A stretch of DNA of 64,000 nucleotides from a virus (taxonomy: Duplodnaviria; Caudoviricetes), in the IMG/VR virus record IMGVR_UViG_3300023178_000006; one strand, given 5' to 3'. Below the pieces are notes generated by a model. It saw only the letters and a program-made list of their open reading frames with translations. It did not search any database and was not told the DNA's origin. The translations under genes were made by a program, and so were the position numbers. Within the stretch, counting starts at the first letter, position 1, and each line of letters starts with the position of its first letter. Below, in pieces: positions 20,601 to 40,522 of this stretch.

Positions 20601-23024
20601 GCTGCATACGATACAACAACAAATCCAGTTACTATTGACATTGATATGTCAACAGCTTTCGAAGAATTTGTCGATAACATTCAAGAGTTTTTACCACTTA
20701 CTGACACAACTCAAACAGTTGAATTGCAAGAAGATAGATGGGGTTGGGGAAGAAGGTTTGGTGGAAGAGGACGTGGTGCTACTGAAGTTACAACAATCAC
20801 AACAAGAACAAGTGAAATTAGTGTAAATCAGGGTTCAACTCAAGAACAATTCGTAGGAGACTTTGTATCTAACTTCTCTATGAAACCATATATGGCAGGT
20901 AGAGATATTAAAGTTTATATGTCTGGTTTACGTCCAAATATACAACACTACTTCTTCTTTGATGGTGTTGATGTAAATGCTCATGTAATTCCTGGTTCAC
21001 CTGACGATTCTGCTGGTAACATTAAGCGTAATGGTAATAAAGGTGATGCAGTAACAACTGACGAAAATGGTGTACTCAGAGCGGTATTCTCATTACCACC
21101 TGAAACATTCTTTGTCGGTGATAGAGTATTAGAAATTGCTGATGTTAATTTATATAACAGTATTGAAAGTGGTTCTACATCAAGAGGTTTCGTAACTTAT
21201 AGAGCATATAACTTCGCAGTTGAGAAGACTGCTTTAACAACTTCAACACGACAACCTGATTTTGATATCAACACAACGACAACAACAAGAAACGTTGCAA
21301 GAAGACCAAGAGGTCGTGACCCAATCGCTCAAACATTCTTTATTAAGAAAGGTATGGGCCAAGGTTCAAACTCTGTTTACTTATCAGAAGTTGACGTATT
21401 CTTCAAACGTGTAAGTACAACCAACGGTGTATCATTACAAGTAAGAGAAGTTGTAAATGGTTATCCATCTAATCAGATTGTTCCATTCTCAGTAGTACAT
21501 AAGATTCCAACAGAATTAACAAGTGCTTCATCTGACGATGCTTCAGTCGCAACTACATTTGCTTTCGAAGCACCTGTAAGATTAGATGTAGAAAAAGAAT
21601 ATGCAATTGTAATTCAACCAGATGCATCTGACCCGAACTACTTAGTATACACTTCAAAAGTTGGTGGAACTGATTTAACACCAGGTGATACTCAAGGTGC
21701 TGCTATTGTACAAGACTGGGGTGATGGTGTTCTATTTAGTTCTACAAACAATAGTGCTTGGAAATCTTATCAAGACGAAGATATGAAGTTTACTTTACGT
21801 AGACACGACTTCAACCAAACAACAGGTAGTGTTACATTAACAAATAATGACCACGAATTCTTAACAGTTAATAACTTTAATGGAAGATTTAATTTAGGTG
21901 AAACAATTTACCAAGAGAAATCTTTACAAGGTTCAACTAGTGCGACAGTAAATGTACCTCTTAATTCTGCAACAATGACAGGTACAAACCTCGATGATAC
22001 TTACGCGGATAATGACTTTATTCTTATTTCGAATGCAGGTAATACTGAATCTGATATTTTCAAGGTTGTAAGTGTATTGAACTCAACAACAATTACACTC
22101 GATAAGCCAGCATCCTTCGCAGTATCTAATGGCACAGGAACACCAGTTGTTGTAGGAAGGTTATCTTATTACAATAAGAATAATCCTTACGAGATGCACT
22201 TAGAAGAGTCCTCAGTAAGGTCTTCAAACATATTCTCTCCTGGATTGCCTATCGTAGGACTTGATAGTGGTAAAACTGCAGACATCGTAAGTATCGATAA
22301 TATTAACTTCAGTTATGTTCAACCTCTTATTAATAGAGCAGTTGATTCAACATCGAAAACTTTACTTGGTGGAACTTTTGTACCACCTACAAATGTAAAC
22401 ACAACTTACACATTACCAATGGAATTCAATAATAATAATCACTTCAGTAAAGAAGGTGTGATTGTTTACAGTAAATCTAATGACCCAAATAGAAGTAAAG
22501 CTTTTGATTTAACTGTTGATTTCGATAATGGTAATAACACTACATCAACTCCTTTCTTAGATATTGAAACATCTAAGTTATTAGCATACACATACAAGAT
22601 TACAAATTCATCTGCGACAACTTCGAAATATATTTCTAAAATTATTGAACTTGCTCCAGATGCAGATGCTGAAGATTTACATTTAATAGTAACAGGATAT
22701 CGTCCAACGGGTTCTGATATTAAGTGTTATATTAAACCTCAAAATTCTTATGATAGTGATGTATTTGATTTAAATCCTTGGATTGAACTCGAACTCTTTG
22801 AAGGAAACGGAGTATTTTCAAGTAATTCAAATCTTAACGATTATAGAGAATTTAAGTTTAGAGTATCAGATGCAAACAAAGCAACCGGTGTATTAACATA
22901 TGCAAACGCACTTGGAACTAATTTTGATGGTTTCAGAAGGTTCGCAATTAAGATTGAAATGTTATCACCTAATGTATATAACGCTCCAACGCTAAGAGAT
23001 TATCGTGGAATTGCACTAACGTAG
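17643..23024 (+). CDS. VrlC/DUF4815-like large virion structural protein
   Basis: MPINTNLNQSPYFDDFD...YYRVLFKPGFAVQARELTQLQSMLQNQ, APGADRL, RFKNGFIVDPF, DPIAQTF and the C-terminal P.LRDYRGIAL. Confidence 0.85.
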   Translation: MPINTNLNQSPYFDDFDIENQYYRVLFKPGFAVQARELTQLQSMLQNQVEQFGDNIFKEGSIVKGCSFTNLDDLRFVKLIDVVGFDPTSYISRRVIENSVQTGGQDLELDYIYEVTGANSGLKAQIISAARGFETRPPDLNTFFINYLAPTDPATTDTEFRAGEPLTVVLKKYKVGVTNTVFAEETQSIPGLAVTSLSNHVGKSFGIQSSPGVVFQKGHFLFAADQVLVISKYNNLPDGVSVGYSVQEKQVNALQDNDLYDNANGSSNENAPGADRLQLIPTLTVLPTTDANTDSAFFTLIRYQNGNAITLRDVSQYNVLGEELARRTFEESGNYVLKQFPVATDDRDGDVNVLLGTGTAYVKGFRVENSGERSFVVDQITQTEVQNNNSVSFDYGNYVDVTAFTGTLDIDWTPVNLQDSGGSNIGTAIAINASPTRVYLTAVTFTGSNKAADLARISDGSGFLEVGNRLHETARKSLLFDTGMKSLFATSDTLLPVREKIAATHNANVITLTANPGEDFDVQQDDILVVDGSNTQIPVTGTLKTLNNSQLDIYLDASANSATNVTLYYNKRLVGAGSNGVEPYNKTVAEPYIKVNFTSATTQYSLGFPDVFDITEVKDASGNDFTSSFKLVNNQKDTYYDISYMEYIQGRPVPANGVLTIKLKVFQLSTSSGEYFFTINSYPNSLDAYDIPVYVSQSGNRFNLRECFDFRPYLNKDASADYSAVTEGAAPTITTAVGAHSLDWSTYGPALIPARSASATTDIEYYLSRIDVIVADSYGEISLIKGKEEKLPAPPRVESEKLVIAEVTVPGFPALSSAGANTAKKREYAVKARSTGIKNYTMKDLHSLEKKIDNMAYYISLNQLESETQNLSVLDENGLNRFKNGFIVDPFNDLSLADIQNPNFMAAVPFNQKILTPAVKTYALDLTYKTSSNASIFPSTSEAKAGTLSRNQNVDIISQPYASGFRNAVSNFYKYQGDGIISPPYDAAYDTTTNPVTIDIDMSTAFEEFVDNIQEFLPLTDTTQTVELQEDRWGWGRRFGGRGRGATEVTTITTRTSEISVNQGSTQEQFVGDFVSNFSMKPYMAGRDIKVYMSGLRPNIQHYFFFDGVDVNAHVIPGSPDDSAGNIKRNGNKGDAVTTDENGVLRAVFSLPPETFFVGDRVLEIADVNLYNSIESGSTSRGFVTYRAYNFAVEKTALTTSTRQPDFDINTTTTTRNVARRPRGRDPIAQTFFIKKGMGQGSNSVYLSEVDVFFKRVSTTNGVSLQVREVVNGYPSNQIVPFSVVHKIPTELTSASSDDASVATTFAFEAPVRLDVEKEYAIVIQPDASDPNYLVYTSKVGGTDLTPGDTQGAAIVQDWGDGVLFSSTNNSAWKSYQDEDMKFTLRRHDFNQTTGSVTLTNNDHEFLTVNNFNGRFNLGETIYQEKSLQGSTSATVNVPLNSATMTGTNLDDTYADNDFILISNAGNTESDIFKVVSVLNSTTITLDKPASFAVSNGTGTPVVVGRLSYYNKNNPYEMHLEESSVRSSNIFSPGLPIVGLDSGKTADIVSIDNINFSYVQPLINRAVDSTSKTLLGGTFVPPTNVNTTYTLPMEFNNNNHFSKEGVIVYSKSNDPNRSKAFDLTVDFDNGNNTTSTPFLDIETSKLLAYTYKITNSSATTSKYISKIIELAPDADAEDLHLIVTGYRPTGSDIKCYIKPQNSYDSDVFDLNPWIELELFEGNGVFSSNSNLNDYREFKFRVSDANKATGVLTYANALGTNFDGFRRFAIKIEMLSPNVYNAPTLRDYRGIALT

Positions 23025-23031
23025 GTGACTT

Positions 23032-23223
23032 ATGAGTGATATGAAAAGAGACAACATCGGCGCGGTAATAAACACAGACATCGAAGCTCTAAATAAATAT
23101 AAGGTAGAAAGAAGTTATTATCGTAAAGTAGATAAACTTCAAAACGATATTCTCGAGATTAAAAGAAGCATCATTACAATTTACGAAAAAATAGAGAAAT
23201 TGGAAACTAAAGACAATGGCTAA
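23032..23223 (+). CDS. Small coiled-coil protein
   Basis: 63 aa ORF tightly packed between the VrlC-like gene and the next gene (8-nt overlap), with a heptad-like C-terminus. Confidence 0.65.
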   Translation: MSDMKRDNIGAVINTDIEALNKYKVERSYYRKVDKLQNDILEIKRSIITIYEKIEKLETKDNG

Positions 23224-24526
23224 ACCAGCACTAAGTACAATTAATACATCACAGACTTTCCAAAACTGGTTTGATAAGACCAACGAGGTTGTTAATATCT
23301 TCAGAACTGATGCAATCACAGCTTCAGGAACTGGTGATACAACAACAGGTGATGCTACATTAATTGGTGATTTCACGTCAACCAATTTAATTGCAAGTAC
23401 TCTACTTCAATCTGATACAATTGCTTCACGTACGGGTGGCGCGACAATCAACTTTAATTCAGATATTAAAATCAATGGTGCTAGTCAAACAACAGCAGAA
23501 TTTAATTTTGGTTCAGGTGGACAAGTAAGATTTACAGACGGAAGTCTCGCATGGGATGTTGGATTAGAAAATTCAAATCCTGGCAACTTTATAATCGATA
23601 CAGGTACAGCACCTACTAAGTTTCAATTATCAACTGCAGGTACTTTATCAGTTCCAAATATTATTGTTGGTGAAGACCTGACTGTTGCAGCTGATGCTGA
23701 AGTAACAGGAACATTAACTGTAGGAACACTCTCAATTGGTGGAGGTGGTGCAGGTTTAAGTACCGATGATGTTTCTGAAGGTTCAACAAACAAATATTAC
23801 ACAGATGCTAGAGCAAGAGGTGCTTTCTCAGGTGGAGACGGAATCAACATCGCAAATGATGGAACAATTTCATTTGATGGAGATGGTGAACTTCAAACTT
23901 ATACAGGTAATGAGTTTATTCCTACAGGTTCTAAAACCGGAAGTGGGAGTACATTCGCTAGAGCTTATATAGATGGTGCAAATAATGTCGGTGTTGGATT
24001 TGGAAGATTAAGATGTGATTGGTCAGGTAATACTTACGATGTATTAACTTGGATGCCAGCAGGTATTGATGTAAATGGTTATGGTCGTTTTGAAGATGAC
24101 GTAAGAGTTACAGGTGGAGATGTTGTTGTAAGAAATAGCTCTAATGATATTGTTGCGTTTATGGACCAAAACGGCAATGGTCACTTTTCAGGTGACGTAA
24201 CAACATACGGTGCTACATCAGACGAAAGATTAAAAGAAAACATCGAGCCAATTGATAATGCTTTAGCAAAAGTTTTAGAGATTAACGGATACACATTTAA
24301 CTATAAAGACAATCCTGAGAAAAGATTACCTGGTGTGATTGCTCAGGAAATTGAAAAAGTTTTACCAGAAGTAGTATATAATGTTGATAATGTAAATGGT
24401 GATGAGGAAGAATATAAAGCGGTAAGATACGCACACGTTGTTCCATTGCTAATCGAGGCAATTAAAGAATTGACAGGAAAGGTAAATGATTTAGAAAATC
24501 GCTTAGCGAACGGCGATAATTCGTAA
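23216..24526 (+). CDS. Short tail fibre with C-terminal S74 intramolecular chaperone
   Basis: N-terminal TFQNWFDKTN motif; C-terminal SDERLKENI...NALAKV...GVIAQEIEKVLPEVV...KAVRYAHVVPLLIEAIKEL. Confidence 0.85.
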   Translation: MAKPALSTINTSQTFQNWFDKTNEVVNIFRTDAITASGTGDTTTGDATLIGDFTSTNLIASTLLQSDTIASRTGGATINFNSDIKINGASQTTAEFNFGSGGQVRFTDGSLAWDVGLENSNPGNFIIDTGTAPTKFQLSTAGTLSVPNIIVGEDLTVAADAEVTGTLTVGTLSIGGGGAGLSTDDVSEGSTNKYYTDARARGAFSGGDGINIANDGTISFDGDGELQTYTGNEFIPTGSKTGSGSTFARAYIDGANNVGVGFGRLRCDWSGNTYDVLTWMPAGIDVNGYGRFEDDVRVTGGDVVVRNSSNDIVAFMDQNGNGHFSGDVTTYGATSDERLKENIEPIDNALAKVLEINGYTFNYKDNPEKRLPGVIAQEIEKVLPEVVYNVDNVNGDEEEYKAVRYAHVVPLLIEAIKELTGKVNDLENRLANGDNS

Positions 24527-24533
24527 TTGGTCT

Positions 24534-24541
24534 TATAAATA
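24534..24541 (+). promoter_or_regulatory. T4-type late promoter TATAAATA
   Basis: Exact consensus, 25 nt upstream of the ATG at 24566. Confidence 0.8.
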
Positions 24542-24565
24542 AAAAGAAAAAGGGAAGACTAATCA

Positions 24566-27500
24566 ATGTCAAAAATTTCAGAACTAGGTTCAATTACAGG
24601 TGCTAATACCAGGTCGGAAGACCTGTTTGTTATTGTCAACCTTGTTCAAGGTGACGATGGTACCAAGAATATTACTCGTAAAGAATTAGTCGAAGCTATT
24701 CAATACGAGATTTTCTCAAGAATCACAATCACTGGAGGTACTATCTCCGGTGTTGTCATGTCAGACTCTAGACTTGATAATGTAATCATCGACAACTCAA
24801 ACATTGAAGATACTGATTTTGTTCGTGGTTCTATTGATGATACAGCAATTACAGACAGTACTGCTAATAACATCACACAATCATATTCAACTTTCCAATT
24901 AGGTACAATATTCGCAACTGTAGCGAATACAATGACAATTACCGATTCTGATTTCTCAGATGGTACTGCAAACAATGTCGTTATCACAAATTCTCAGTTC
25001 AATGAAGGTACTGGTAATAATGTAGTACTTACAAATTCAACCATTGATAATTCCACATTTATTAACGGTGATGTTAATAACTCTGTTATTGAAACATCCG
25101 AGTTTAATAATGGTACAATGGATACAGTTACTGGTGTTAATTTAGACATATCTAATTCAGATATTACAACATCAGATATCACAGATTCAACAGCTAACAA
25201 CTTAACGATTACAAGTTCTGAGTTTAACTCAGGAACAATGGACACTGTTACTGGTGTCGATATAACATTATCGAATTCTGAAATTAGTACAACTAATATT
25301 CAAACTTCTAATTTCTATGAAGGCAATATTAGTAACACGGTTATCGTAACATCAGAATTCAATGATGGTACATCTAATAATGTTGTTATAACAAATTCAC
25401 AGTTTAATGATGGCACAGGAAATAATGTCACATTAACAAATTCAACCATTGACGATTCTTTAATTCAAGATAGCACCATCGCTAATACCTCATTTACAGG
25501 TACAATGAGTGATGTAACAGCAGTCAATATGACAATCACAAGTTCATCTGCTGATGGATTAGGTGCTAATAATTCTACATTCGAAAATGGTACAGTTTCT
25601 TCTTCAACATTCTCAGGTGGAGTCATTGACCAATCAAAACTTGTCGACTTTGACATGGAACTTACCAAAGAGTTCGAACCACCTATTGATGATGAAAGTT
25701 ATTTCGCAATTCGAAATGAACAAACTGGTGAAACAGAACAAATTAACTTTGGTCAATTATTTGACGAAGTTTCTGCAAGAACAGCTCAAGCACTTAAAGT
25801 TCACGTTGACGCAGCTTCAGGAGACGATAAAAATCCGGGTACTCAATTAGCACCTGTTAGAACTCTTGAACGTGGTTGTGAACTTATGTTAGAAAAAGCG
25901 GGTGGTTCTTTTGACAGAAACGCATTGAACAACGCAGTTCATATGTCAGTTGGCCCAGGTGCTTATTATACAAAAGGTGAACTTGCAATTCCTGATGACT
26001 GTTCAGTAACTTCTACTGCAGGTCAGTATGCTACGGTTATTGAAGCACTTCCAGGTTATGAAAATAATAACTGTTGGTTAGTAGGTTCAGGTAACTATGT
26101 TCAAGGTTTCGGTTATCAAAACTGGAAGATTGACAACTTCGATTTCCCAGAAGGTGGATTCGCTATTGCTTACAGACCTGGTGCTAAGTTACTCCGTTCA
26201 CCATACATCAGAGACAGTTCTCAATTATCTAACTTTAACAGGGTAGATGTTGAACCACCTCTAAACCCATATAACACCAAAGGTACACTTGACGACTTAG
26301 GTAGAGAGTTTACATTAAGTAATGTTTCAAGTGTTTCTGGATTTGCGGTTGATGATGAGATTACATTCTCATCTGGTGCAGTTGGTTTCGTATCTTACGT
26401 TTCTGAACTTGCTTCTGATAATAAGATTCACGTAAGAAACTTAAAGAACAACAAAGGTTTTGCGGTTGGGGATACTATTACATCTGAATCTGGTGGTACT
26501 GCTACAATCGACGTAATTGGTATCGACGACTTCCCTAACAGATTAGTTGGAAGAGGTGGTGGATGTCTACTTGCAGATAGAAGAGTATTAGACCCAGATT
26601 CATTATATACTTACGTATTATGTTTCGGTTTCACACCTCGTTCTCAAAACGGTATGGGTTATGTTGCTAGGGATGGTGCTGGTGTAAACGGTATCGGTTC
26701 TCTATCCATCTTCGTACGATGCGCATTCTACGCATTGAACGGTGGACAAATGACATTGAACAACTCAGGTACTCAGTTCGGTGACATCTCAATGAGAGCT
26801 AAGGGTACAACTCAGTTCTTCGCACCTAAAGCAACCAATGCAACTATATTCGGTAACACAGTATTTGCTGACACTATTGAGAATGCTTATGACGATATCG
26901 TCGATGATATGGTTGACTATCTCACATCAAATACAGCGAACGGTGGATTAAATTACACAGGATACGATGCTGGTAAATGTGAAAGAGATACAAGAATTAT
27001 TGTTGATGGATTAGGTTATGACGTTGCATTAGATTCTAACTACTGGGGTAGATTAGCTGGTATTACATATCGTTCACCTATCTCACAAAAAGTTGTAGGT
27101 GACCAATTAGAACAAACAGTCGCAGCAAACGAATATTTACAAGACCAGATTGAAGGTATTTTCGAAGGCTCAACAAATATTATTAATAGAGCAAATACTT
27201 CAATGCAAGAACTCTTTAATGTTCTTCAATATGGTGAAGAAAACATGAACCCAATTACATGGGTTGACGACATTTATAATCCTGAAAGAACAGCAGCTAG
27301 AGAGTTAATACAAGACAACAGGTCATTTATTCAAGATGAATTAACAGATTGGATTGATAATAATGATGAGTTCTTCTCTTATGATAGTGTAGCATGTAGA
27401 AGAGATACAACTGATTATATTCTTCCAGCTGTTAAGTATGATATGTTATTGGGAACAAACTATAATGCAGTAACTGCGGGTAATGCTTATTACATGAATG

Positions 27501-30500
27501 CAGCTGCTAAAGTAGTTGATAAACAACGTAATGAAACAATTGCAGCATATCGTCATCTTAAAGATAAAACAAACGAACTCATCGATGCAAATACAGAAAT
27601 TGGTCACGTAAGAGCTGATGAAGCATTTGACGAAATCATCGGTCAATTAGAAGGTAATGGAATTAAGTTATTACCTGAACCTGCTTCTTATACACCTACA
27701 GATGCTTCTTATGACCACGTAAGTGGTTTAATGGAAGTTACCATAGGTGACCATGCATTTAAAGTTGGAGATGGTATCTTTATTAAAGAGAATGGAATGA
27801 CATTCTCATGTCCAGAAGATGGAACAGGAAATCCAATCAATATTTCACATCCACGTCCAAGTGACCCATTGTGGAATCAGAAATTTGATATTGTATCGAT
27901 AACACAAACAACTATAACGGTTGATGCAAAACCGGCAGGTGTCAATAAAGTACATACATTCGTAAGTGCATATAAGGACGCAATCCAAGCAGCTACTACA
28001 TACACATGGACACCGACAGGCGGAACATATGATGCAGCAACTGGTTATATGACGTTAACTCTTGGAAGTAAGCATGGTCTATCCAAAGGTGATAGAGTAT
28101 TCTTCAAACCAGAGAGTATAACATTCTCATGTGAAGGTGATGGTACAGTTACACAATTATCACACCCAAGACCACATGACCCAACATACAAAACACCAGT
28201 AGAGATTGACTCTGTCACATCTAATTCGATTACAGTGTTAGTTGGTCCTTCAGCTTATGTTGCACCACATACATTCGTATCAGCTGATGTTAACTCAGTT
28301 ATTTTAGCGAATTCTAAGATTTACTTCTCTGATGATACATCAATCACAGCAAGTAAGCGTAATGCTAGAATTCAATTACAAGAAAACAAAGAATTTATTC
28401 AAGACTTAATGCTTGGTTATATTGATTATAACTACTTTAGATATGATTCAGAAAAATGTGAGAGAGATGTTCTTAAACACATCTTACCTGCAGTTGAAAG
28501 AGATATTATTACAGGTTCAAACTATAATGCTAAACAAGCAGGTATAGCATACAGGTCTAAAACTTCTGCAGAAGATACTTGGTTAAATGAAAGACCAGAA
28601 ACCGTTGGTTCAATGACAGAGTTGAAGCAATTAGTTGCTAACAACACAATCACAGACCTTGGAAGTATTCATAGGTCAAATGAATCATTCAGACAATTAA
28701 TTGATATTACAAACAGTAATGGTAAATCATATACACCTGCAGCAGGAACAACTTATGACCCAACATCTGGTAAATTAGTATTATCAATTGGTGCTCATGA
28801 TTTCGAACCTGGTCAAAACATCGTACTTGACGATGAGAGTGTTACATTTACATGCGCATTAGACGGTAATGCAACACAACATTCTTACCCAAGAAAAGGT
28901 GACCCTGCTTACAGAACACCAGTATTAATTAACAAAGTAACATCAACAACGATTGAAGTAAATGTTGGTGGATACGAAAATGGTACAGCACATACATTTG
29001 TATCAGCAACTGCTAACAGTGTTAAAGCATCTGATTACATTTCATCTTTCACACCTTCAACTGCTACATACGACCCAGCAACTGGAGTATTTGAAGCAAC
29101 AATAGGTAATCACTCATTTGAAGTAGGTGATTATGTTGAGTTGAAACCTGAAAGTATCGTATTTACATGTGCACAAGATTCAAATACAGTTGAGCATGCT
29201 TATCCAGCAACTCACCACCCTGCATATAAAACTCCAGTTAAATTAACAGGAGTAACTGCGACAACAATCACAATGAATGTTGGTGTAGGTTCTGGTGGTG
29301 CTCATACATTCGTTAGAGCTGACGTTGGTGCTATCGAGGGTGACCCAATTATTTGGACTGACCCATCTAAGTACTTAAAATATTATACACCAACAACTGC
29401 AACATACAACCCAGGAACTGGTGAAAGTGTAGTTACAATTCCAGGCCACGACTTATTAGTTGATGACTTTATCGAATTCGCACCTTACAGTTTCACATTT
29501 ACATGTTCTCAAGATGGAGATGCTACTGAACATTCATATCCAAGAAAAGGAGATGGTAACTTCAATACACCAATGCAAATTACTGCAGTGAATGGTGATG
29601 ATATTACTGTCGATGTTGGAGCAGGTTCAGGTGGTACACATACATTTGTAAGAGTTTCAAACGAAGCGGTTGCTAAGGTTACAACAAATTCAGACGGATT
29701 CTATGCCGCTCAACAATTACAAGCTAACCGTAATATGATTCAAGATGAAGTAATGGCTTATCTTGATAATAATTACTTTGTATTCGATGGTGCTAAATGT
29801 TCAAGAGATACAGGATTTATTTTAGATGCTGTAAGACGTGACGTTGCAACAGGTGCAAACTATAATGCGGTATTCAATGGATTAGGATACAGAATCGGTA
29901 CTGTCGGTGCTAACAAAGTTATTAATGACCAATTACCACAAACAACTGGTTCAATCAATTATCTTAAATCAGAAATTGCAGCTGAACTTTCTGGTAACTC
30001 ATTAGCAAGAGCAAACGCAGCATTTGACGAAATTATAGACATTATCACTAACGGTTCTGCAAATGCAAACACACTAGCATTTGGTGCTAATGGTGTAAGT
30101 GCTCAAACAATCGAAGCAAGGAATGCATTACAAAATAACAGAGCATTTATCCAAGCTGAAATTACAGCTTATATTGCTCAAGAATTCCCTAACTTAAATT
30201 ACGATGTTGCTGATTGTGAAAGAGATACAGGTTATCTAGTTGATGCATTATCTTGGGATATTCAACACGGTTCTAACTCGGCTTCTATCAACTTTGCAAG
30301 ATTATACTTTGAAAATGCGATTGCAGTTCTACCTGGTGACCAAAAGATACCAACAGCGAAAGCATGGCAACATATTGCTGATGTAGCATATCAAGTTGTA
30401 AGAGACCAAGCAGTCACACCTACATCTGGAAATGCTGCTTCTCAAGACCAATCATTAACTGATGTTGGAATCGCCATTGCAAATGATGTTAAAGACTTAG

Positions 30501-33500
30501 TGAATATCGTTACAGATACAATAAGAAACGAATCACTTGATTGGTTACCTGAATATATTGAACCAACAATTGAAGCAACTTATGAAGATGCTGTTAATAA
30601 GATTGATGGTCAAACAGAACCTCTTTCAATCGATGTTATCGGATATGTACAAAGAGAATGGAAAGGTTTACCATACGAAAAAGCTAAGTGTAGAAGAGAC
30701 GTTGGTCTTATTGTTGATGCTGCTTCTAAAGACATTATCTATGGTGGTAATGCAAATGTTATCGAAGCTGCTAAATACTACTTTAGACTTGACGATGAAC
30801 AATCAGCAGATTACGAACAATTAAGAAGTGTTAACGTATTACCTCTCGAAGTACTTGGTCAGTTTAAAGATACTGCCGAAGAATACAAGACAGCAAACGT
30901 TTCAGGTTTACGTACACTAACAAACATATTACCTATTGAACAACGCATTCCAACAATGGAAGCATTTAGACATTTAGCAGATGTTGCAAGTAATGTAGTA
31001 CAAGAAATTGCGATTACACCTTCAGCAAACAATGTACCTTCACAAGATACTTCAGGTACTCCGGCTGATGCAGCAACTGGTACAGCAATTCACGACCTGA
31101 TTGAAATTGTTGCTAATGTAGTTGATGATGATTCAGATGAGAACTTAACAACTACACTAGTGAGTCCAACAGTTGATTCAAACAGAACAGCAGCACGTGT
31201 TCAAATACAAAGAAACAAAGACTTTATTGCTGAAGACGTCATTGCTAAGTTGAAGAAAGATTACTACACATTCGATGGAGATAAGTGTAAGCGTGATGTT
31301 GGAATTCTTATTGATGCGGTTAAACGTGATGTACTTACAAACTCTAACTTTAACGCAGTGTTCAATGGATTAGCATATAGAATTGGAACAACTGGTGCTG
31401 ATGCGGTTATTACAGAACAACTTTCAGAAACAATTAAAGCAATTGAATACACAAGAGACATTGCAGTTAACAACGTAACATCTAGCGTTGGAAAACAAAG
31501 AGCAATGACAGCATTTAATGAAATCCTTGACATCATGAAGAATGGTTCTACTAATGCTGATGCAATCACTTATGGTAGTGTTTCTCAAGCGGGTAATAAC
31601 GGTATTAATGCAAGAGAACAATTACTTAATAACAAAGCATTCTTACAAGCTGAAATCACAGCTTGGATTGCACAGAATTATGGTTCACTAGTTTATGATT
31701 CAGCTAAGTGTGAAAGAGATTTAGGATACTTAATTGATGCTGTTATCTTTGATGCAATGCATGGTGGTAATAGTGCTTCAATTAATGATACAAAACTTTA
31801 CTTCGAAAATGCAATCAGTGTTTTACCAGAAGACCAGAGAGCACCTACAGCGGCAGCCTTTAATCATATAGGTACTGTTGCAAGAAGTGTTGTACTCGAC
31901 ACCGCAGTTACTCCAACAACAGGAAATGCGGAATCACAGAACTTCTCAGCTGGGTCAGTAGGTACACCACTTGCAGATAAGATTGAAGGTCTATTTGGAT
32001 TGGTTGCAACAGCAATTTCTGATAACGGATTAGAAGTTAACCCAGATGTTGAAGAACCAAATACAACATTCTACACTGATGAACTCGCATCTTACGTAGA
32101 ATTAGACGCAAGTAAAGAAGCAATTCAAGACGGAATCCTTGCTTATCTTGCAAGATACTTTGACATTCTTCCATACAGCGAAGCAAAATGTAGAAGAGAT
32201 GTTGGATATATCCTTGACGGAGTATCACATGACATTCAATACGGTGGTAATGCAGCTACATTAAATAACGCATATCTCTACTTTGATAATGCAGTAAATA
32301 CCTTGCCTAAAGAACAAAGAGCTGCAAGTAAAGAAGCATTTACTCATGTCGCTAATGTTGTAGAACATGTTGTTAGAAGAATGGAAGTAGACCAATCACG
32401 TTGGATTAAACAAACATTCGGAGTTCAAACAGCAACTTATGACCCAGTAACTGGAATCATGGTTGTAACAACAAAAGCTCCACACGGATTAACAACAGAC
32501 GATTACGTCATCGTTGAAGATGAGGGTATAACATTTAGTTGTGGTGGTAGTGTTGAAATATCACATCCAAGACCAGATATTGACCCAAATCATAGACAAC
32601 CTTTAAGAATTACCGCGGTAACTAACCAGACATTTACAGTAAATGCTGGATATGCCAAAGGATACGCTGGTGCTCATACATTTGTAAGTGCTTTACCTAA
32701 CGCTATTCTCCACATTGAAAACCAAATCTACAAGCAAGATATGTCACAAATTGCTGGTGACCCAGAGATTGCAATTAGAGCTAAAAACCTAGTCAATATT
32801 ATTTCTAATGTAGTCGATAAGGGTTCTTATGTAGACTTCCCGAATAGAGTAGACCCACTACAAACATGGCAGGCACAACCTTTCATTGATTCGAAAGAAT
32901 TAATCGAAGATGCAAGTACTGGTTTAGCAACTTCTGTTCTGAATTACATTTCAAATGTTCATAATGGATTGAGTTTCCCAGAAGCTAAGTGTAGAAGAGA
33001 TATTGGATACTTACTAGACGCTATCTCTCATGATGTTCAGTATGATGGAAACATCGCTACACTAACAGCAACTAAGATTTATTTTGAAAATGGTATCAGC
33101 GTATTACCTGCAGACACAAGAACTCAAACTGCAGACATATACAATTACTTAGGAACAGTTCTTGATGCTGTCGTACAAGAAGATAACAGTGTTGCTAATA
33201 CAACATACACATCGACAACTCAAGATTTACTTGGAACACCTGCAACAGCGATTGAAGGTGGAAGGGTTAGTGACTTAATAGGAATCGTTGAAGACGCAAT
33301 ACGTGCTGACAACTTAGATTCATTACCACTTCCTGTTGAACCTACAATTGCATGGGTTGACACAGGTATTCAAGGTGCAGCTCAACAGATTGAAGATAAT
33401 ACTGAATCACTTGCTGATGAATTAATCTACTACATTAGACAAGAGTTTGATGTACTTGATTATAACAGAGCTAAGTGTAGAAGAGATATTGGATACTTAC

Positions 33501-34732
33501 TCGATGCATTCAGTTATGACTTGAACTATGGTGGTAACATCGCATCAAGATGGAATGCAGATTTCTACTTCTGGAATAATCAGTTTAGAGTTCCTGAAGA
33601 CCAACGTATTCCAACAGCAAAAGCTTATAAGCAACTTGGTGTAATATGTAAAGATATCGTACTTGGTAAATATCCAAATCAAACAGTTCTTGGAGAAGTT
33701 GGTACTGATGTAGAGTCTAAGAAAGTTAAAGGACTTGCAGACATGTTCTACAAGACACAATTCTTTAAAGATACTAAGTACTTACCTGCTAAGGAAGAAC
33801 CAGATTATACATATGTTGATGATACATTTACAAGTGCTCAGTTCATCCTCGAACAGAATAAACTCGACCTTGCATTTGATGTCGTAAGATTTGTTAATAC
33901 AACTTATGATTACATTGACATTAACTTAACAAGAAGAGATGGTTACAACTTATTAGAAGCAATTACAAATGACTTTAGATATGAAGATGCTTCCGCGGGC
34001 GTACCAGTGTACGGGAACGTGGCAGGGTCTCAGAAATCTACAAGGTCATTTACCGCAGCATTCTTCGACCAGAAAGGTCAGCATACATTCCCAGTATTTA
34101 ATCCATCTAATACAGCATACAAATACCAAGGAAGTGTATCACAGCTATCTGACCTAGCTGCTATCACAGGACAGAAACCAAATCACGCATATATTGTTGC
34201 AGATAACTATGCAGTAAGTCATTTTGCGGGAGATATATATTATTGGAACGGAACAACTTGGGTATTAGACCAGACTAACGACACATCATTACTTGACGCC
34301 TTTACTGGTGCTTGGGATAGAATGAGAGATTATATTGTTAATAATCTATCACCTAACTCACAACACGACTTAATGGTTGAAGGTTTATTTAATGACTGTC
34401 TGAAAGATAATATTCTAAGACCAGAAACATTAGTATTTGGTTCCTTGGTTGAATCCATTGCTCACCAGTTTAATGGTGCATCAGCAGGTGTTAACAGAAA
34501 TGCTCTACCTCTAAACTTTAGAAACTTAGGTTCTGCTATATCAGCGGTGGCTTCGGTACTAAGTGAAGATGGTGGTAGAATCAGATGGTCGGGTGCGGAT
34601 GAATTGAATAACCAATACTTCGCAAGAGGTCTAAGAATTAATGGTAGAACAGGTCGAATCGAAGGTCGACCATTTACATCATCTGTAAGAAAACTCGCAA
34701 GAAGAGCTTCAAACAGTAGAGCAGCATTATAA
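24566..34732 (+). CDS. Giant (3388 aa) virion appendage protein: beta-helix repeats, pectin-lyase-like region, 12 helical CxRD repeats and 6 His/Cys beta-sandwich repeats
   Basis: MSKISEL N-terminus; Asn/Ser/Thr short repeats at about 24750-25650; HVDAASGDDKNPGTQLAPVRT beta-helix cap at about 25800; CxRD repeats at 26978-33929; YDP.TG...HTFV repeats. Confidence 0.85.
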   Translation: MSKISELGSITGANTRSEDLFVIVNLVQGDDGTKNITRKELVEAIQYEIFSRITITGGTISGVVMSDSRLDNVIIDNSNIEDTDFVRGSIDDTAITDSTANNITQSYSTFQLGTIFATVANTMTITDSDFSDGTANNVVITNSQFNEGTGNNVVLTNSTIDNSTFINGDVNNSVIETSEFNNGTMDTVTGVNLDISNSDITTSDITDSTANNLTITSSEFNSGTMDTVTGVDITLSNSEISTTNIQTSNFYEGNISNTVIVTSEFNDGTSNNVVITNSQFNDGTGNNVTLTNSTIDDSLIQDSTIANTSFTGTMSDVTAVNMTITSSSADGLGANNSTFENGTVSSSTFSGGVIDQSKLVDFDMELTKEFEPPIDDESYFAIRNEQTGETEQINFGQLFDEVSARTAQALKVHVDAASGDDKNPGTQLAPVRTLERGCELMLEKAGGSFDRNALNNAVHMSVGPGAYYTKGELAIPDDCSVTSTAGQYATVIEALPGYENNNCWLVGSGNYVQGFGYQNWKIDNFDFPEGGFAIAYRPGAKLLRSPYIRDSSQLSNFNRVDVEPPLNPYNTKGTLDDLGREFTLSNVSSVSGFAVDDEITFSSGAVGFVSYVSELASDNKIHVRNLKNNKGFAVGDTITSESGGTATIDVIGIDDFPNRLVGRGGGCLLADRRVLDPDSLYTYVLCFGFTPRSQNGMGYVARDGAGVNGIGSLSIFVRCAFYALNGGQMTLNNSGTQFGDISMRAKGTTQFFAPKATNATIFGNTVFADTIENAYDDIVDDMVDYLTSNTANGGLNYTGYDAGKCERDTRIIVDGLGYDVALDSNYWGRLAGITYRSPISQKVVGDQLEQTVAANEYLQDQIEGIFEGSTNIINRANTSMQELFNVLQYGEENMNPITWVDDIYNPERTAARELIQDNRSFIQDELTDWIDNNDEFFSYDSVACRRDTTDYILPAVKYDMLLGTNYNAVTAGNAYYMNAAAKVVDKQRNETIAAYRHLKDKTNELIDANTEIGHVRADEAFDEIIGQLEGNGIKLLPEPASYTPTDASYDHVSGLMEVTIGDHAFKVGDGIFIKENGMTFSCPEDGTGNPINISHPRPSDPLWNQKFDIVSITQTTITVDAKPAGVNKVHTFVSAYKDAIQAATTYTWTPTGGTYDAATGYMTLTLGSKHGLSKGDRVFFKPESITFSCEGDGTVTQLSHPRPHDPTYKTPVEIDSVTSNSITVLVGPSAYVAPHTFVSADVNSVILANSKIYFSDDTSITASKRNARIQLQENKEFIQDLMLGYIDYNYFRYDSEKCERDVLKHILPAVERDIITGSNYNAKQAGIAYRSKTSAEDTWLNERPETVGSMTELKQLVANNTITDLGSIHRSNESFRQLIDITNSNGKSYTPAAGTTYDPTSGKLVLSIGAHDFEPGQNIVLDDESVTFTCALDGNATQHSYPRKGDPAYRTPVLINKVTSTTIEVNVGGYENGTAHTFVSATANSVKASDYISSFTPSTATYDPATGVFEATIGNHSFEVGDYVELKPESIVFTCAQDSNTVEHAYPATHHPAYKTPVKLTGVTATTITMNVGVGSGGAHTFVRADVGAIEGDPIIWTDPSKYLKYYTPTTATYNPGTGESVVTIPGHDLLVDDFIEFAPYSFTFTCSQDGDATEHSYPRKGDGNFNTPMQITAVNGDDITVDVGAGSGGTHTFVRVSNEAVAKVTTNSDGFYAAQQLQANRNMIQDEVMAYLDNNYFVFDGAKCSRDTGFILDAVRRDVATGANYNAVFNGLGYRIGTVGANKVINDQLPQTTGSINYLKSEIAAELSGNSLARANAAFDEIIDIITNGSANANTLAFGANGVSAQTIEARNALQNNRAFIQAEITAYIAQEFPNLNYDVADCERDTGYLVDALSWDIQHGSNSASINFARLYFENAIAVLPGDQKIPTAKAWQHIADVAYQVVRDQAVTPTSGNAASQDQSLTDVGIAIANDVKDLVNIVTDTIRNESLDWLPEYIEPTIEATYEDAVNKIDGQTEPLSIDVIGYVQREWKGLPYEKAKCRRDVGLIVDAASKDIIYGGNANVIEAAKYYFRLDDEQSADYEQLRSVNVLPLEVLGQFKDTAEEYKTANVSGLRTLTNILPIEQRIPTMEAFRHLADVASNVVQEIAITPSANNVPSQDTSGTPADAATGTAIHDLIEIVANVVDDDSDENLTTTLVSPTVDSNRTAARVQIQRNKDFIAEDVIAKLKKDYYTFDGDKCKRDVGILIDAVKRDVLTNSNFNAVFNGLAYRIGTTGADAVITEQLSETIKAIEYTRDIAVNNVTSSVGKQRAMTAFNEILDIMKNGSTNADAITYGSVSQAGNNGINAREQLLNNKAFLQAEITAWIAQNYGSLVYDSAKCERDLGYLIDAVIFDAMHGGNSASINDTKLYFENAISVLPEDQRAPTAAAFNHIGTVARSVVLDTAVTPTTGNAESQNFSAGSVGTPLADKIEGLFGLVATAISDNGLEVNPDVEEPNTTFYTDELASYVELDASKEAIQDGILAYLARYFDILPYSEAKCRRDVGYILDGVSHDIQYGGNAATLNNAYLYFDNAVNTLPKEQRAASKEAFTHVANVVEHVVRRMEVDQSRWIKQTFGVQTATYDPVTGIMVVTTKAPHGLTTDDYVIVEDEGITFSCGGSVEISHPRPDIDPNHRQPLRITAVTNQTFTVNAGYAKGYAGAHTFVSALPNAILHIENQIYKQDMSQIAGDPEIAIRAKNLVNIISNVVDKGSYVDFPNRVDPLQTWQAQPFIDSKELIEDASTGLATSVLNYISNVHNGLSFPEAKCRRDIGYLLDAISHDVQYDGNIATLTATKIYFENGISVLPADTRTQTADIYNYLGTVLDAVVQEDNSVANTTYTSTTQDLLGTPATAIEGGRVSDLIGIVEDAIRADNLDSLPLPVEPTIAWVDTGIQGAAQQIEDNTESLADELIYYIRQEFDVLDYNRAKCRRDIGYLLDAFSYDLNYGGNIASRWNADFYFWNNQFRVPEDQRIPTAKAYKQLGVICKDIVLGKYPNQTVLGEVGTDVESKKVKGLADMFYKTQFFKDTKYLPAKEEPDYTYVDDTFTSAQFILEQNKLDLAFDVVRFVNTTYDYIDINLTRRDGYNLLEAITNDFRYEDASAGVPVYGNVAGSQKSTRSFTAAFFDQKGQHTFPVFNPSNTAYKYQGSVSQLSDLAAITGQKPNHAYIVADNYAVSHFAGDIYYWNGTTWVLDQTNDTSLLDAFTGAWDRMRDYIVNNLSPNSQHDLMVEGLFNDCLKDNILRPETLVFGSLVESIAHQFNGASAGVNRNALPLNFRNLGSAISAVASVLSEDGGRIRWSGADELNNQYFARGLRINGRTGRIEGRPFTSSVRKLARRASNSRAAL
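26900..34000 (+). repeat. Twelve ~140-160 aa helical protein repeats centred on C-x-R-D
   Basis: Cys codons at 26978, 27395, 28457, 29798, 30215, 30689, 31286, 31709, 32189, 32990 and 33476. In the twelfth copy Thr (33929) replaces Cys. Confidence 0.9.
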
Positions 34733-35218: not shown

Positions 35219-38200
35219 ATGTCCAATTTTGGAACACTAACAGGAAAAAGTCAGCTAATAGGTTTTGGTGAACCTCAAGCATTCCCTATTACACTTGACC
35301 CAGCCGTCTATGAAGGCGCGGTGGTCTATGCTGATAACGATAAAGTTTATTACTCCGACGGGACAAGTTGGATTGAATTATTAGGTGGCGGTGGTACCAC
35401 AGTCGATGCTATTCTTCCTTTTGCGTTTATCCGAGTTGATGGAACAGGTAATATTACAGGTACCGGAATTTCATCTTCGAATTGGGATGCAGTTAATGGT
35501 ACGATGGACTTTACCTTTGATACTGCTCAGCCCGATACTGATTATACTGTTGTCACTGATGGTGAACTCAATGATGATGGTCGTTTAGTATCAATTCAAA
35601 GTAAAACAGTTAATGGATTTGAAGCTTCATTCTATGACAGCAATGGTAATGCAACAACTCCTTCCTCTGCAAGTGCATTTGCTATTATGGTATTTGCATC
35701 TGACCCTGTCACTCAAGTAGGTCAAGGTCAGCAAGGTATCCAAGGTACAACAGGTGCTCAAGGTCTACAAGGTGATTATGGTCCTGGTTTTACAATCATT
35801 GGTTCAGTCGCAGATGTAGATTCAGGTGGTGACCCTCAAGCAACTTTAAATACAGCATTTCCTACTCCAAATACAGGTGAAGGTGTTATTGACGAAGCTG
35901 ATGATGAACTTTGGATTTATAATGGAACGAGCTGGGTTAATATCGGTTCATTCCGCGGAGTTCAAGGTTTACAGGGTGTAATTGGACCACAAGGTTTACA
36001 AGGTCCTTTAGGTAACGAAGGTATCCAAGGTGAAAGAGGATTCCGTGGTTTCCAAGGTATGCAAGGCGTACAGGGCCATCAAGGTGTTCAAGGTGACTTA
36101 GGTATCCAAGGTGTTCAAGGTTTCAGAGGACCTCAAGGTGTTCAAGGTATTACTGGTATCCAAGGTGACTTAGGTATTCAAGGCATCCAAGGAGTTCAAG
36201 GCGTTCAAGGAACAACTGGTATTCAAGGTGATGTAGGTTTACAAGGGTTACAAGGATTTAATGGTGATGATGCTGGTCACGTAGTTGAATACAGATTAGA
36301 TTGGAATACTTCTCAAGCAGACCCAGGCACTGGTAATATTATCTTTAATGATACTGGTTTCTCTAATACATCTAATTTCTCAACAGTTGACACAATGTGG
36401 ATTGACGATGAAGCAATATACGGTGTTAACTTAGACGCACTATATACAACAATTTCAAGTCAAACATCCACTGATAAAGCGGTAATGAAAATTACCAAAC
36501 GTGGAAACCCAGATGATTACGTTATCTTCACAATTCAAAACGCAACAGACCAAACAGGTTACTGGCAATTTAATGTTACATTCCAAGGTGGTAACGCATT
36601 AAGAGAAGACTTTACAGAATATAATGGTGGAAACGGAGTTTGGACACTTAACCCATTATTAGTAGCATTTAGTATTGTTGGTGATGAAGGTATTCAAGGT
36701 CCTATTGGTCCAAGAGGTATTCAAGGCGTTCAAGGATTACAGGGCCCACAAGGTTTACAAGGATTTAGAGGACCACAAGGTACAATAGGTATCCAAGGTA
36801 ATACAGGTGTTCAAGGTGACGTAGGTCTCCAAGGTATTCAAGGAACAACTGGTATTCAGGGTGATGTTGGTATCCAGGGTGTTCAAGGAACAACTGGTGA
36901 CTTTGGTGGTATCACATACGATTACACATACAGTAATAACACAACAGCATCTGACCCAGGCACTGGTATTATTAGGTTTGATGATACAAACTTAGCTTCA
37001 GCAACTCAAATGTACATCGATGACGAAGACGATAATGGCGTCAACGTTATGGATGGATTAATGGTTGACTTAGATGCAGTAAGTTCAGGTGTTAAAGGTT
37101 ATTTCAAAATTACAAATGGTGCAGATACTACAAACCACATTACATTTAGAATTGACGAAATTACGAATGGTTCTGGTTATTGGGTAGTTGATTGTACAAG
37201 ATTAAGTGGAGCATCTTCATTATCTAATGGTTTAGATGTTCGTATATCATTCTCAAGAACTGGTGACCAAGGTACTCAAGGTGTTCAAGGTACTCAAGGA
37301 TTTAGAGGCTTCCAAGGTGATTTAGGTCTCCAAGGTGTTCAGGGTGTACAAGGTACTGATGGTCTTCAAGGTTATAGAGGTTTCCAAGGTGATGTTGGTA
37401 ACACTGGTGCACAAGGTATTCAAGGTGTTCAAGGAACATTTGGTATCCAAGGTGATGTCGGATTACAAGGTGACAGTGGTGCAACCGGTGCTCAAGGTAT
37501 TCAGGGTGTTCAAGGTGGTCAAGGTTTACAAGGACTTCAAGGATTACAAGGTGAACAAGGTGAATATGGCGGTTTAACTTTCCAATGGAACTTTGTTAAT
37601 AACACAATTGGTGGTACAGACCCAGGCACAAACAATTTCAAATTTAATAATGCTAACCCAACATTAGCAACATTAATTACATTAGACGATATTCCAGATG
37701 ACCAATACACTACAGAAATTGATGACTTCTTAGATTTCATCGATGCTCAACCAGGTGCAGTCAAAGGTTATCTAAAAATTCAAAGAGCAGCAGGTGGTGC
37801 AAGTGGAGGTCCAGGAGGGCATCACTGGTTAGTATATGAAATTACAGATTGGACATGGGACGGTGTATCTAAGAATTACGGTTATTTTGATGTTAACTAT
37901 GTTGATGGTAATGTTACTAACTGGGAAACTGCAGTTAATCAAACACACGGTCCTGAAACACTTATTACATTTATTCCAAGAGGTCCCGCAGGTATCCAAG
38001 GTGCGGTTGGTGGAATTGGTCCTCAAGGTGTTCAAGGTCCTACAGGTTCGGGTGCTCAAGGTGTTCAGGGTGTTCAAGGTTCTGGAGGTATTCAAGGTGC
38101 CGATGGTTCATTTGGTGGTGTAACATTTGATTATACATTTAATTCAGGAACGTTAGCTGGTGACCCAGGTGGAGCCGGTTGGGTTAAACTGAATAGTGCT

Positions 38201-40522
38201 ACACAGTCAAGTGCAACATTAATATTCATCGATGATAGAGATGATAACTTCATCGACATTCAACCTTTCTTAAGAACAATTGATGATTCAACATCTCCAG
38301 TTAAAGGTCACGTTAAGATTACTCTTAAGAGTTCTCCACAAAACTTTATCTTATTTACAATTTCAGGTTTAACAGAAACAACAGGTTATTTTGCTATTGA
38401 TGTAGCACACGTTTCCAACGCAGGATATACATTCCAAGGTGGTGACGATGTAATGATTACCTTCGCAAGAACAGGTGATGCTGGTGCGACAGGTGCGCTT
38501 GGACCACAAGGTGTTCAAGGTACTCAAGGTGTTCAAGGTGATTATGGATTCCAAGGACCGGCTGGTGCGGGTGCTCAAGGTATCCAAGGTTTACAAGGAA
38601 CATCTGGTTTCCAAGGTTCTGATGGAGCAGATGGTGCAGCTGGGTCTCAAGGTATCCAAGGTATTCAGGGTTCTACTGGTACTCAAGGATTTGGTGGATT
38701 CCAAGGACCAGGCGGAACTGGTGCTCAAGGTATTCAGGGTGTTCAAGGTTTAATAGGTCAACAAGGTATCGCGGGTGTAGGTGCTGGAGGATTCCAAGGT
38801 CCAGCAGGTGCTCAAGGTATTCAGGGTGTTCAGGGTTCTGACGGTTCAGGAGGAACTCAAGGTGTTCAAGGTACACAGGGTGTCGGTGGAGCAGGTGCTC
38901 CTGGTGCTCAAGGTCCTCAAGGAACTCAAGGTTTAAGTGGTATTGGTGCACAGGGTGTATTTGGAGTCCAGGGTGCGCAAGGTCTACAAGGTGTTCAGGG
39001 TCCTACGGGTGCAGGCATCCAAGGTGCCTCTGGTACAGGTACACAAGGTATTCAAGGTCCTCAAGGTATTGATGGAACAACGGGTACAGGTGTTCAGGGT
39101 ATTCAAGGTTTCCAAGGTTATCAAGGTGTACAAGGTCCTCCAGGAACAGGAGCGCCAGGTATCCAAGGTTATAGAGGTTATCAAGGTGTTCAAGGAAATG
39201 TTGGTGGAGACGGTGGTGGCGGTGTTCAAGGTCCTACTGGTCCACAGGGTATTCAAGGTACTACAGGTGATGCTGGAACAGGATTACAAGGATATAGAGG
39301 TTATCAAGGTGCTCAAGGTGAACAGGGTGCCGATGGTGGAACAGGTGGAGGCGGTGTTCAGGGTGAACAAGGTACTCAAGGTTATAGAGGATTCCAAGGT
39401 AATCAAGGTGTAAGTGGTTCAGGTTCTGGTGGTCCACAAGGTCCTCGTGGTTTCCAAGGTACTGATGGTTTAAGTGGAAATGGAATTCAAGGTCCGTTAG
39501 GCCCAATAGGTCCTCAAGGAACAAGAGGTCCTCAAGGTTATAGAGGTATCCAAGGTATTCAAGGATTTACCGGTGGTGCTTCTTCTCAAGGTTTCACTGG
39601 TGACACAGGTGCTCAAGGTTTCAATGGATATCAAGGTACTCAAGGATTTAGAGGATTCCAAGGTATTGATGGTGGAACTGGTGGAGGTGGTATCCAAGGT
39701 CTACAGGGTGTTCAAGGAACATTAGGTTTCCAAGGTTCACAAGGTCCTGCAGGTTCAGCTTCTGGTATTAACGCACCTTCAATTAGGGAACAAAGTAACG
39801 CACTACAAACAGGTACTTTCTATCCAACATTTATTGAGCCTGGTTCTGGTGTAAGAACACTATATGCTGCAACAACTCCTGATTTATATGCAGGTGGTTC
39901 AGGTGATACTAACTTTACATATAACTTAAACTCAGAAACAGTTCTCGTAGAAAACTTCTATGTAGATGGTGGTATAACACTAGGTGGTGTTACTAGAACT
40001 ACATGGCCATCGGGTGGTTCAGGTTATGATGGTACATCTGCTAACGTACAGTCAGCTAACTACTTAAGATTTAATGATGATATTCCTTTAATCTTCGGTA
40101 CATCAAGTGATGTTGATTTCTACGCAAATAACACAGCAATGTATACCGACCTTAATTCTGGACATGATTGGTTCATTAGAGAAGGTACAGTTGTAAGATT
40201 CACGTTTGATACAGGAACGGGTGACTTCACAGCTGGTGGTAACGTTACAACTAACTCAGACGAAAGATTAAAGATTAATGTTAATACATTAGAAGATGCT
40301 TTAGATAAAGTCAAAGCATTAAGAGGTGTTTCATATAATAAGATTGATAATGAAAGAGATGAGATTGGTCTCATTGCACAAGAGGTTGAGAGTATACTTC
40401 CAGAAGTCGTAAGAGATAATGCTGATGGATTTAAGTCAGTATCTTATGGAAATATAACAGCATTATTAGTTGAAGCAATAAAAGAACAACAAAGACAAAT
40501 TGACGAATTAAAGTCAAAATAA
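35219..40522 (+). CDS. Collagen-like fibre (Gly-X-Gln triple-helix tracts, four repeated globular domains) with C-terminal S74 chaperone
   Basis: Long (G-X-Q)n tracts between about 35725 and 39750; four DPG-containing globular repeats; C-terminal SDERLKINV...[15 protein letters not shown]...[16 protein letters not shown]. Confidence 0.9.

Follow-up and report, generated by a model that had tools for sequence, protein, structure and literature searches.

Why do phages of nonphotosynthetic bacteria carry genes for bilin synthesis, and which protein could receive the pigment? In phages of nonphotosynthetic bacteria, the heme oxygenase (HO) and bilin reductase genes have remained without a known purpose ever since PcyX was first reported. 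Phages with a valaS-hemO-pcyX arrangement are found in marine and freshwater metagenomes, and a 2024 report called the purpose of hemO-pcyX "still enigmatic" and named no acceptor (PMC11480375). We addressed this question in a 64,000-nt stretch of DNA from an uncultured marine Caudoviricetes virus (IMG/VR record IMGVR_UViG_3300023178_000006), hereafter the window. It harbors an open reading frame (ORF) at positions 24566 to 34732 (plus strand), coding for a giant fiber or virion structural protein of 3388 aa (P0001) that is rich in Cys-x-Arg-Asp (CxRD) motifs. An earlier reading of the sequence alone had proposed that virion CxRD-repeat proteins could be the missing bilin acceptor. Our results point to a late fiber protein whose shaft is made of domains of the phycobiliprotein (PBP)/BBAG superfamily and which probably, if only by a modest measure, carries bilins from the phage's own pathway. 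Taken together, they make a strong and testable lead, not a proven case.

CxRD units are homologous to phycobiliproteins

The 3388-aa protein contains 11 CxRD motifs, compared with 0.08 predicted from its composition. These motifs hold 11 of its 25 cysteines, and six more cysteines lie within a second repeat (TF[ST]C...HPRP...HTFVS). All 11 motifs align in one helical repeat of ∼140 to 170 aa. We aligned 141 diverse CxRD units (alignment A1) and compared the resulting profile with all PDB sequences. Phycobiliproteins accounted for 26 of the 27 matches (25 phycocyanin alpha chains and 1 phycoerythrocyanin beta chain), with a best E value of 0.004. HMMER aligned the motif to the K-C84-x-R-D-x-G-Y...GG stretch of phycocyanin alpha (C84-x-R86-D87), and CXRD is the bilin attachment motif of PBPs (PMC10151467). 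When the 141 units were scanned one by one against Pfam, 27 matched PF00502 (best E value, 2.9e-5), and each other family was matched by at most one unit. The unit chosen for modeling (aa 2325 to 2505) had no Pfam match when scanned alone.

An AlphaFold2 model built from A1 showed six helices (pLDDT, 95.5; pTM, 0.91), and the top 50 matches of this model in a Foldseek search of the PDB were all phycobiliproteins. AlphaFold DB clusters, an ESM Atlas fold search, and a protein-atlas feature search returned no usable match for the unit. The near-invariant positions in A1, numbered as in the modeled unit, are Cys58, Arg60, Asp61, Asp72, Gly77, Tyr88, Thr104, and Gln134. Across 1,583 units from 151 proteins, the Cys is kept in 94%, the Arg in 95%, and the Asp in 98%, at a mean column identity of 24%; in the protein studied here, the motif is intact in 11 of 12 units. 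The units thus combine the globin-like, all-helical core fold of the PF00502 superfamily with sequence-profile similarity to it and a CxRD motif at the Cys84-equivalent position on the equivalent of helix E. Profile searches and the structural model together indicate that the CxRD units are true phycobiliprotein homologues, with their Cys at the Cys84 position.

They also differ from light-harvesting PBPs in several ways. The closest relatives are C-phycocyanin alpha by sequence and phycoerythrin and cryptophyte beta subunits by structure, at 14 to 21% identity. PBPs are free subunits of 160 to 180 aa, whereas the phage units stand in tandem within one fiber protein and have invariant residues of their own (Asp+14, Tyr+30, Thr+46, and Gln+76, counted from the Cys). 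Unlike PBPs, they come with no lyases, linkers, or photosystems, and their pigment binding is a prediction.

Could the conserved Cys serve another chemistry? Disulfides between chains or between units could rigidify the fiber in oxidizing seawater, a Cys-Gln thioester-type bond could allow covalent adhesion, or, inside the globin-like pocket, the Cys could be a ligand of heme or of a metal. Such uses would agree with the single invariant Cys per unit, with the Gln at position 134 of the modeled unit (kept in 83% of the units), with the invariant Cys and His residues of the beta-barrel repeats that alternate with the units, and with the boost that this phage lineage would give to heme synthesis through ALA synthase (see below). 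Against them stands the exact K-C-x-R-D-x-G-Y context of a bilin site. We know of no thioester domain or heme-Cys globin with that motif, and among the fold matches only PBPs are conspicuous. Moreover, 11 is an odd number of Cys per chain, and therefore not all of them can pair within one chain. We consider this explanation quite improbable.

The giant gene has the promoter and the setting of a late virion gene

A late-promoter octamer of the exact T4 type, TATAAATA, is located at positions 24534 to 24541 on the plus strand, 24 nt before the start codon of the 3388-aa ORF, as is characteristic of T4-type late genes. A purine-rich ribosome-binding stretch separates it from the ATG at 24566. The sequence-only reading had described an exact late promoter in front of a CxRD-repeat protein, and on this it was correct. 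The window contains five copies of TATAAATA (starting at 17483, 24534, 40600, 58273, and 62213), a raw count that is not above chance (8.1 expected on both strands). All five lie on the coding (plus) strand, and four of them are within ∼55 nt of the start codon of a structural gene.

The gene itself is located 3' of gp48-, gp5-, gp6-, and gp7-like baseplate genes and among other fiber genes, which encode a DUF4815 protein, a fiber with an S74 chaperone, and a collagen-like fiber. The PHROG families that match the 3388-aa protein are annotated as tail fiber, short tail fiber, and virion structural protein. Gene position, late promoter, and homologue annotations suggest that this late protein of 3388 aa belongs to the baseplate or the tail fibers and that it would be present in the virion.

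As these are the three lines of evidence for incorporation, we also considered that the domains may bind bilin and yet have no pigment role in the free virion, either acting inside the cell, as a sink for bilin or to detoxify it while heme is broken down, or not entering particles at all. The location of the gene inside the baseplate-fiber module under a late promoter speaks against this, as do the PHROG annotations and the homologues in P-HM1, P-HM2, and MED4-213, which are gp7-like baseplate wedge proteins. A 10-kb gene would also be an expensive sink. Of the explanations weighed here, we find this one the hardest to believe.

The same phage genome encodes a heme oxygenase and a PcyX-type reductase

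We then looked for bilin genes in the rest of the genome. The IMG/VR record that contains the window (G000; 107,852 bp, ∼50% complete) carries no gene for HO or for a ferredoxin-dependent bilin reductase (FDBR), either within the window, as the sequence-only reading had noted, or elsewhere along its length, and it stops short of the place where these genes lie. We extended the genome upstream of this record by exact-protein look-ups, which yielded a tiling path. The record shares a 5.4-kb overlap, at 99.94% identity, with an ENA contig of 182,102 bp. On this contig are genes for a 204-aa HO and a 229-aa FDBR that overlap by 4 nt. They are flanked by an IscA-like gene on one side and by gp59-gp32-UvsX on the other, and in the numbering of the window they are computed to lie at -47,742 to -46,442, that is, ∼71 kb upstream of the fiber gene. 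The search of the remaining genome that the sequence-only reading had advised was therefore rewarded with a PcyX-type cassette, along with ALA synthase in close relatives.

Both proteins are intact. With 63.1 bits, the HO exceeds its Pfam cutoff of 23, and its proximal heme-ligand His and GDxxGG motif are kept. For the FDBR, the score is 69.7 bits (cutoff, 31), and the catalytic His and Asp are conserved; among solved structures, PcyX is the nearest (5OWG; E value, 2.4e-34, versus 1.6e-10 for PcyA). As in the phage hemO-pcyX cassettes, an intact HO gene is thus directly followed by the gene for a PcyX-clade FDBR. By analogy with characterized PcyX, the product of this reductase would be phycoerythrobilin (PEB), although one freshwater "PcyA/X" enzyme makes phycocyanobilin instead (PMC11480375). 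Judged from these genes, the phage genome encodes a predicted bilin pathway ∼71 kb from its fiber gene.

An IscA/HesB-like gene for Fe-S assembly and a weak VIT1-like ORF (contig L007, 12017 to 13131, minus strand) are divergent from the HO-PcyX pair (13368 to 14668 of the same contig), in which the HO gene is at position 13368.

Fiber and bilin genes are linked in related phages

We next examined the relatives of this phage in IMG/VR, most of which are short fragments. Among the fiber-bearing records, only two also cover the gp32 neighborhood (G006, 170 kb; G016, 77 kb), and in both of them the fiber gene and HO-PcyX are on one contig, 67 to 68 kb apart. Five other long fiber-bearing records do not contain gp32 and are uninformative on HO and FDBR. 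Approaching the question from the gp32 side, we inspected the 80 closest gp32 loci, of which 44 have at least 3 kb of upstream sequence; each of these 44 carries HO and FDBR genes, the FDBRs being 48 to 87% identical to the one studied here. Neither psbA nor psbD was found in any of 22 related records. Hence, in this psbA-less clade, every record covering both regions has both the fiber and HO-PcyX.

ALA synthase (ALAS) genes are present in three long relatives (G006:C1:8092-9276, G014:C1:14118-15311, and G002:C1:113189-114370), with scores of 557 to 566 bits against a cutoff of 338.55; the G014 copy contains one in-frame TGA. With ALAS in the relatives and HO-PcyX in the genome itself, the lineage therefore matches the valaS + hemO + pcyX type of phage contig (PMC11480375). 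It shares with those phages, and with pelagimyophage Mosig, a two-gene HO-FDBR cassette whose FDBR is closest to PcyX, a T4-like and psbA-less genome, and ALAS in relatives.

The repeat is restricted to settings where bilin is available

An exhaustive search for the repeat family gave 919 cluster representatives, of which the majority are giant proteins. By tblastn, the repeat was detected in 392 cultured phage records, all of them Synechococcus or Prochlorococcus phages or "Marine virus" single-cell records, in which the protein is annotated as short tail fiber, structural protein, or gp7 baseplate wedge. As judged by a search with gp6, the same collection has 2,376 T4-like records. Most have enterobacteria, Vibrio, Acinetobacter, or still other bacteria as hosts, and of the ∼1,900 T4-like records from such hosts, not one contains the repeat. 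The PBP-like fiber was thus encountered only in cases with a bilin supply, either a cyanobacterial host or the phage's own HO-PcyX, while the enzymes can occur without the fiber.

The giant proteins of T4-like cyanophages (S-PM2 YP_195253, ACG-2014e YP_009134530, P-RSM6 YP_007675165, and P-HM1 gp7) belong to the same repeat family, at 24 to 31% identity; they share PHROGs 5342, 701, and 4527 with the 3388-aa protein and occupy the same place in the baseplate-fiber module. Their hosts make bilins, and many of these phages carry cpeT, whereas the present phage is psbA-less, has no cpeT that we could find, and has its own HO-PcyX instead.

A bilin-lyase homologue, cpeT-like, neighbors the giant gene in two genera of cyanophages. 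In S-PM2 (NC_006820), the cpeT-like gene (163952 to 164479) directly precedes the giant PBP-like fiber gene, which starts at 165928 on the same strand. In ACG-2014e (NC_026928), a cpeT-like gene (18240 to 18764) is directly upstream of the fiber gene (19130 to 31357), again on the same strand. This adjacency was not seen in S-RIM32, and none was visible in P-RSM6. In P-RSM6, a Prochlorococcus phage with a pcyA gene as well, the PBP-like repeat is found in one annotated virion structural gene of 25.7 kb (NC_020855, 103907 to 129628; ∼8,570 aa).

A candidate acceptor for phage bilins

How could the pigment and the fiber meet? We propose that the fiber shaft consists of 11 tandem bilin-binding-globin domains (plus 1 degenerate domain) of the PBP/BBAG superfamily, interleaved with small beta-barrels, and that the Cys-x-Arg-Asp chromophore site kept in each of the 11 domains would receive a bilin. 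The pigment would be supplied by the phage itself: ALAS, as seen in the relatives, may raise heme synthesis, HO would convert heme to biliverdin, and the PcyX-type reductase would convert biliverdin to PEB, so that bilin could build up in the infected nonphotosynthetic host. PEB or a related bilin would then attach to the CxRD cysteines while the fiber protein folds, without a lyase, as in BBAG-1 and BBAG-3. The released virion could carry up to 11 bilins per chain, where the pigment might be either a fold-stabilizing cofactor or a light-responsive element of adsorption.

A precedent for this scheme exists in bacteria. BBAGs (bilin biosynthesis-associated globins) of heterotrophic bacteria are PBP paralogues whose nonphotosynthetic genomes also encode HO and FDBR; two of them, BBAG-1 and BBAG-3, contain the CXRD motif and can couple themselves to bilins, PEB included, with no lyase (Rockwell, Martin, and Lagarias 2023; PMC10151467). 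Compared with BBAGs as they are described, the phage follows the same logic, with a CXRD globin, an HO, and an FDBR in a nonphotosynthetic, psbA-less genome and no lyase found; in the phage, the globin gene is distant from the enzyme genes. Whereas each BBAG is a single-domain protein of the cytoplasm, encoded in a cluster with its FDBR, the phage domains are repeated 11 to 12 times in a predicted virion protein located ∼71 kb from the cassette. By analogy with BBAG-1 and BBAG-3, attachment of bilin to the phage fiber could likewise proceed without a lyase. ApcE, the core-membrane linker, is another case of a PBP-like domain within a large multidomain protein, with reported autocatalytic bilin attachment; it has one PBP domain plus linker repeats and resides in the phycobilisome, not in a virion. 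Our literature search, made in an incomplete library, found no paper describing PBP-like domains in phage virions or particles.

Several observations weigh against a pigmented fiber. First, the N-terminal X-Y helical hairpin typical of canonical PBPs is missing from the units, which are thus not canonical light-harvesting subunits: residues 1 to 18 of the model are coil, and the alignments with the lowest root mean square deviation (∼2 Å) begin at PBP residues 32 to 35. Second, 41 of the 1,583 units have lost the Cys and kept the Arg-Asp pair, which suggests a possible structural role of the pair. Third, no CpeT/CpcT (PF06206) or CpeS/CpcS (PF09367) lyase was detected in G000, G006, G014, G002, and G016, which cover the genome in part, and neither these lyases nor a plant-type ferredoxin was detected in ∼650 kb of clade records; the suggestion of the sequence-only reading that T/S-type lyases and ferredoxin be sought elsewhere in the genome thus led to nothing. 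Fourth, the Fe-S gene beside HO-PcyX fits a role in iron economy or iron handling. Fifth, with the FDBR query used here, only 25 cultured records have an FDBR, versus 392 with the repeat, and most fiber-bearing cyanophages have no FDBR of their own. Sixth, Pelagibacter phage Mosig has ferrochelatase, HO, and FDBR in its complete 141-kb genome and no match to the A1 profile, that is, no PBP-like fiber; because of Mosig, the HO-FDBR cassette cannot be said always to imply the fiber. Finally, the co-occurrence inside the clade is a single evolutionary event. The co-occurrence expected by the sequence-only reading therefore holds in every clade record that covers both regions, and the cassette is present at all 44 gp32 loci, but the co-occurrence breaks down in Mosig and counts as one event within the clade. 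Its broader proposal, that virion CxRD-repeat proteins are the missing acceptor, is strengthened by PBP-fold units with a Cys at the Cys84 position and by HO-PcyX in the genome, and is weakened by Mosig and by the missing lyase.

Most of these observations would be accommodated if the PBP fold had been co-opted as a pigment-free structural block of the fiber, with HO-PcyX (and ALAS) serving the infected cell. The conserved Cys, Arg, and Asp, together with Asp+14 and Tyr+30, would then form a fold-stabilizing or interdomain network, and the enzymes would act in iron release and Fe-S supply, in heme turnover, or for a cellular bilin acceptor. Mosig, the cyanophages without FDBR, the missing lyase, the Arg-Asp pair of the Cys-less units, and the IscA-like gene and weak VIT1-like ORF flanking HO all agree with this explanation, and iron supply has been discussed as a possible role (PMC11480375). 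Fold stability, however, hardly explains why 94% of 1,583 units should retain one free Cys when overall identity is 24%, and PBPs fold without need of Cys84. Furthermore, every characterized protein of the PBP/BBAG superfamily binds bilin (PMC10151467), the repeat has been observed only together with a bilin source, be it a cyanobacterial host or phage HO-PcyX, and iron release requires HO only, not a four-electron bilin reductase. We regard a pigment-free fiber as possible but rather doubtful, and we retain the bilin-carrying fiber as the preferred explanation.

Whatever its function, a protein with 11 intact candidate bilin attachment sites, encoded in the same genomes as the enzymes, provides a concrete acceptor that can be tested by standard coexpression in E. 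coli. If the bilin-carrying fiber is real, it would be the first pigment-bearing phage particle and would extend the PBP/BBAG superfamily to virion structure. It would also be a candidate target for the orphan phage lyase CpeT, whose gene is directly upstream of the homologous fiber gene in S-PM2 and ACG-2014e, and a molecular candidate for the light-dependent adsorption that has been reported for several marine cyanomyoviruses (PMC2984593). In its most far-reaching form, this idea has a phage of a nonphotosynthetic marine bacterium build pigmented virions, with dozens to hundreds of PEBs, made by its own ALAS-HemO-PcyX pathway, on the PBP-like domains of the baseplate fibers and with adsorption or fiber deployment responsive to light; applied to cyanophages, the idea would account for light-dependent adsorption and for the existence of phage cpeT, ho1, pebS, and pcyA. 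So extended, the idea is speculative, and we think it unlikely to hold in full. This work adds the tiling proof for the genome and the clade-wide linkage with ALAS-HemO-PcyX, and it connects the lineage with the valaS phages already published. It also shows that, among ∼2,400 cultured T4-like records, the repeat is confined to settings in which bilin is available, and it contributes Mosig as a counterexample and the contrast between the lack of known lyases and the BBAG precedent.

Architecture and surroundings of the 3388-aa protein

We delimited the regions of the protein along its gene, all on the plus strand. Near the N terminus, aa 57 to 370 (24734 to 25675) form a pentapeptide-repeat-like region, probably a beta-helix (PF13599; 47.3 bits against a cutoff of 38 when the N-terminal part was scanned alone), which is followed by a domain with no family match (aa 400 to 765; 25763 to 26860). 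The shaft then begins with PBP-like units 1 and 2 (CxRD Cys 805 and 944; 26867 to 27589) and beta-barrel repeats 1 and 2, with the signature TFSC...HPRP...HTFVS (27674 to 28321), and continues with PBP-like unit 3 (Cys 1298; 28316 to 28705) and beta-barrel repeats 3 to 5 (28718 to 29701). Six PBP-like units follow without interruption (Cys 1745, 1884, 2042, 2241, 2382, and 2542; aa 1705 to 2625; 29678 to 32440), and after beta-barrel repeat 6 (32405 to 32731) come units 10 and 11 (Cys 2809 and 2971; 32846 to 33739). The degenerate 12th unit (33773 to 33985) has T-R-R-D in place of C-x-R-D (aa 3097 to 3100), and the C-terminal region (aa 3141 to 3388; 33986 to 34729) has no family match.

The uninterrupted block of six units is a duplicated triplet of unit subtypes and includes the modeled unit. 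Six globin domains are also the content of one (alpha-beta)3 PBP disc, so that a single-chain pseudo-disc is conceivable for this block. The six beta-barrel repeats, of ∼108 aa each, share invariant Tyr, Cys, and Pro residues along with near-invariant His residues, a potential metal site. Their fold is predicted with confidence but matches generic small barrels only.

The fiber genes on either side of the giant gene (23216 to 24526 and 35219 to 40522) end in S74 intramolecular-chaperone domains, the downstream one being collagen-like; unlike both of them, the PBP-like giant protein has no S74 domain. A near-identity DNA search of the region among cultured phages gave no match. At the protein level, the gp6 baseplate wedge (6425 to 8302 of the window) has its closest cultured relatives in the Sinorhizobium phages phiN3 and phiM12 (38%) and in Caulobacter phage Cr30, none of them cyanophages or pelagiphages, which may be a hint of the host or the lineage.

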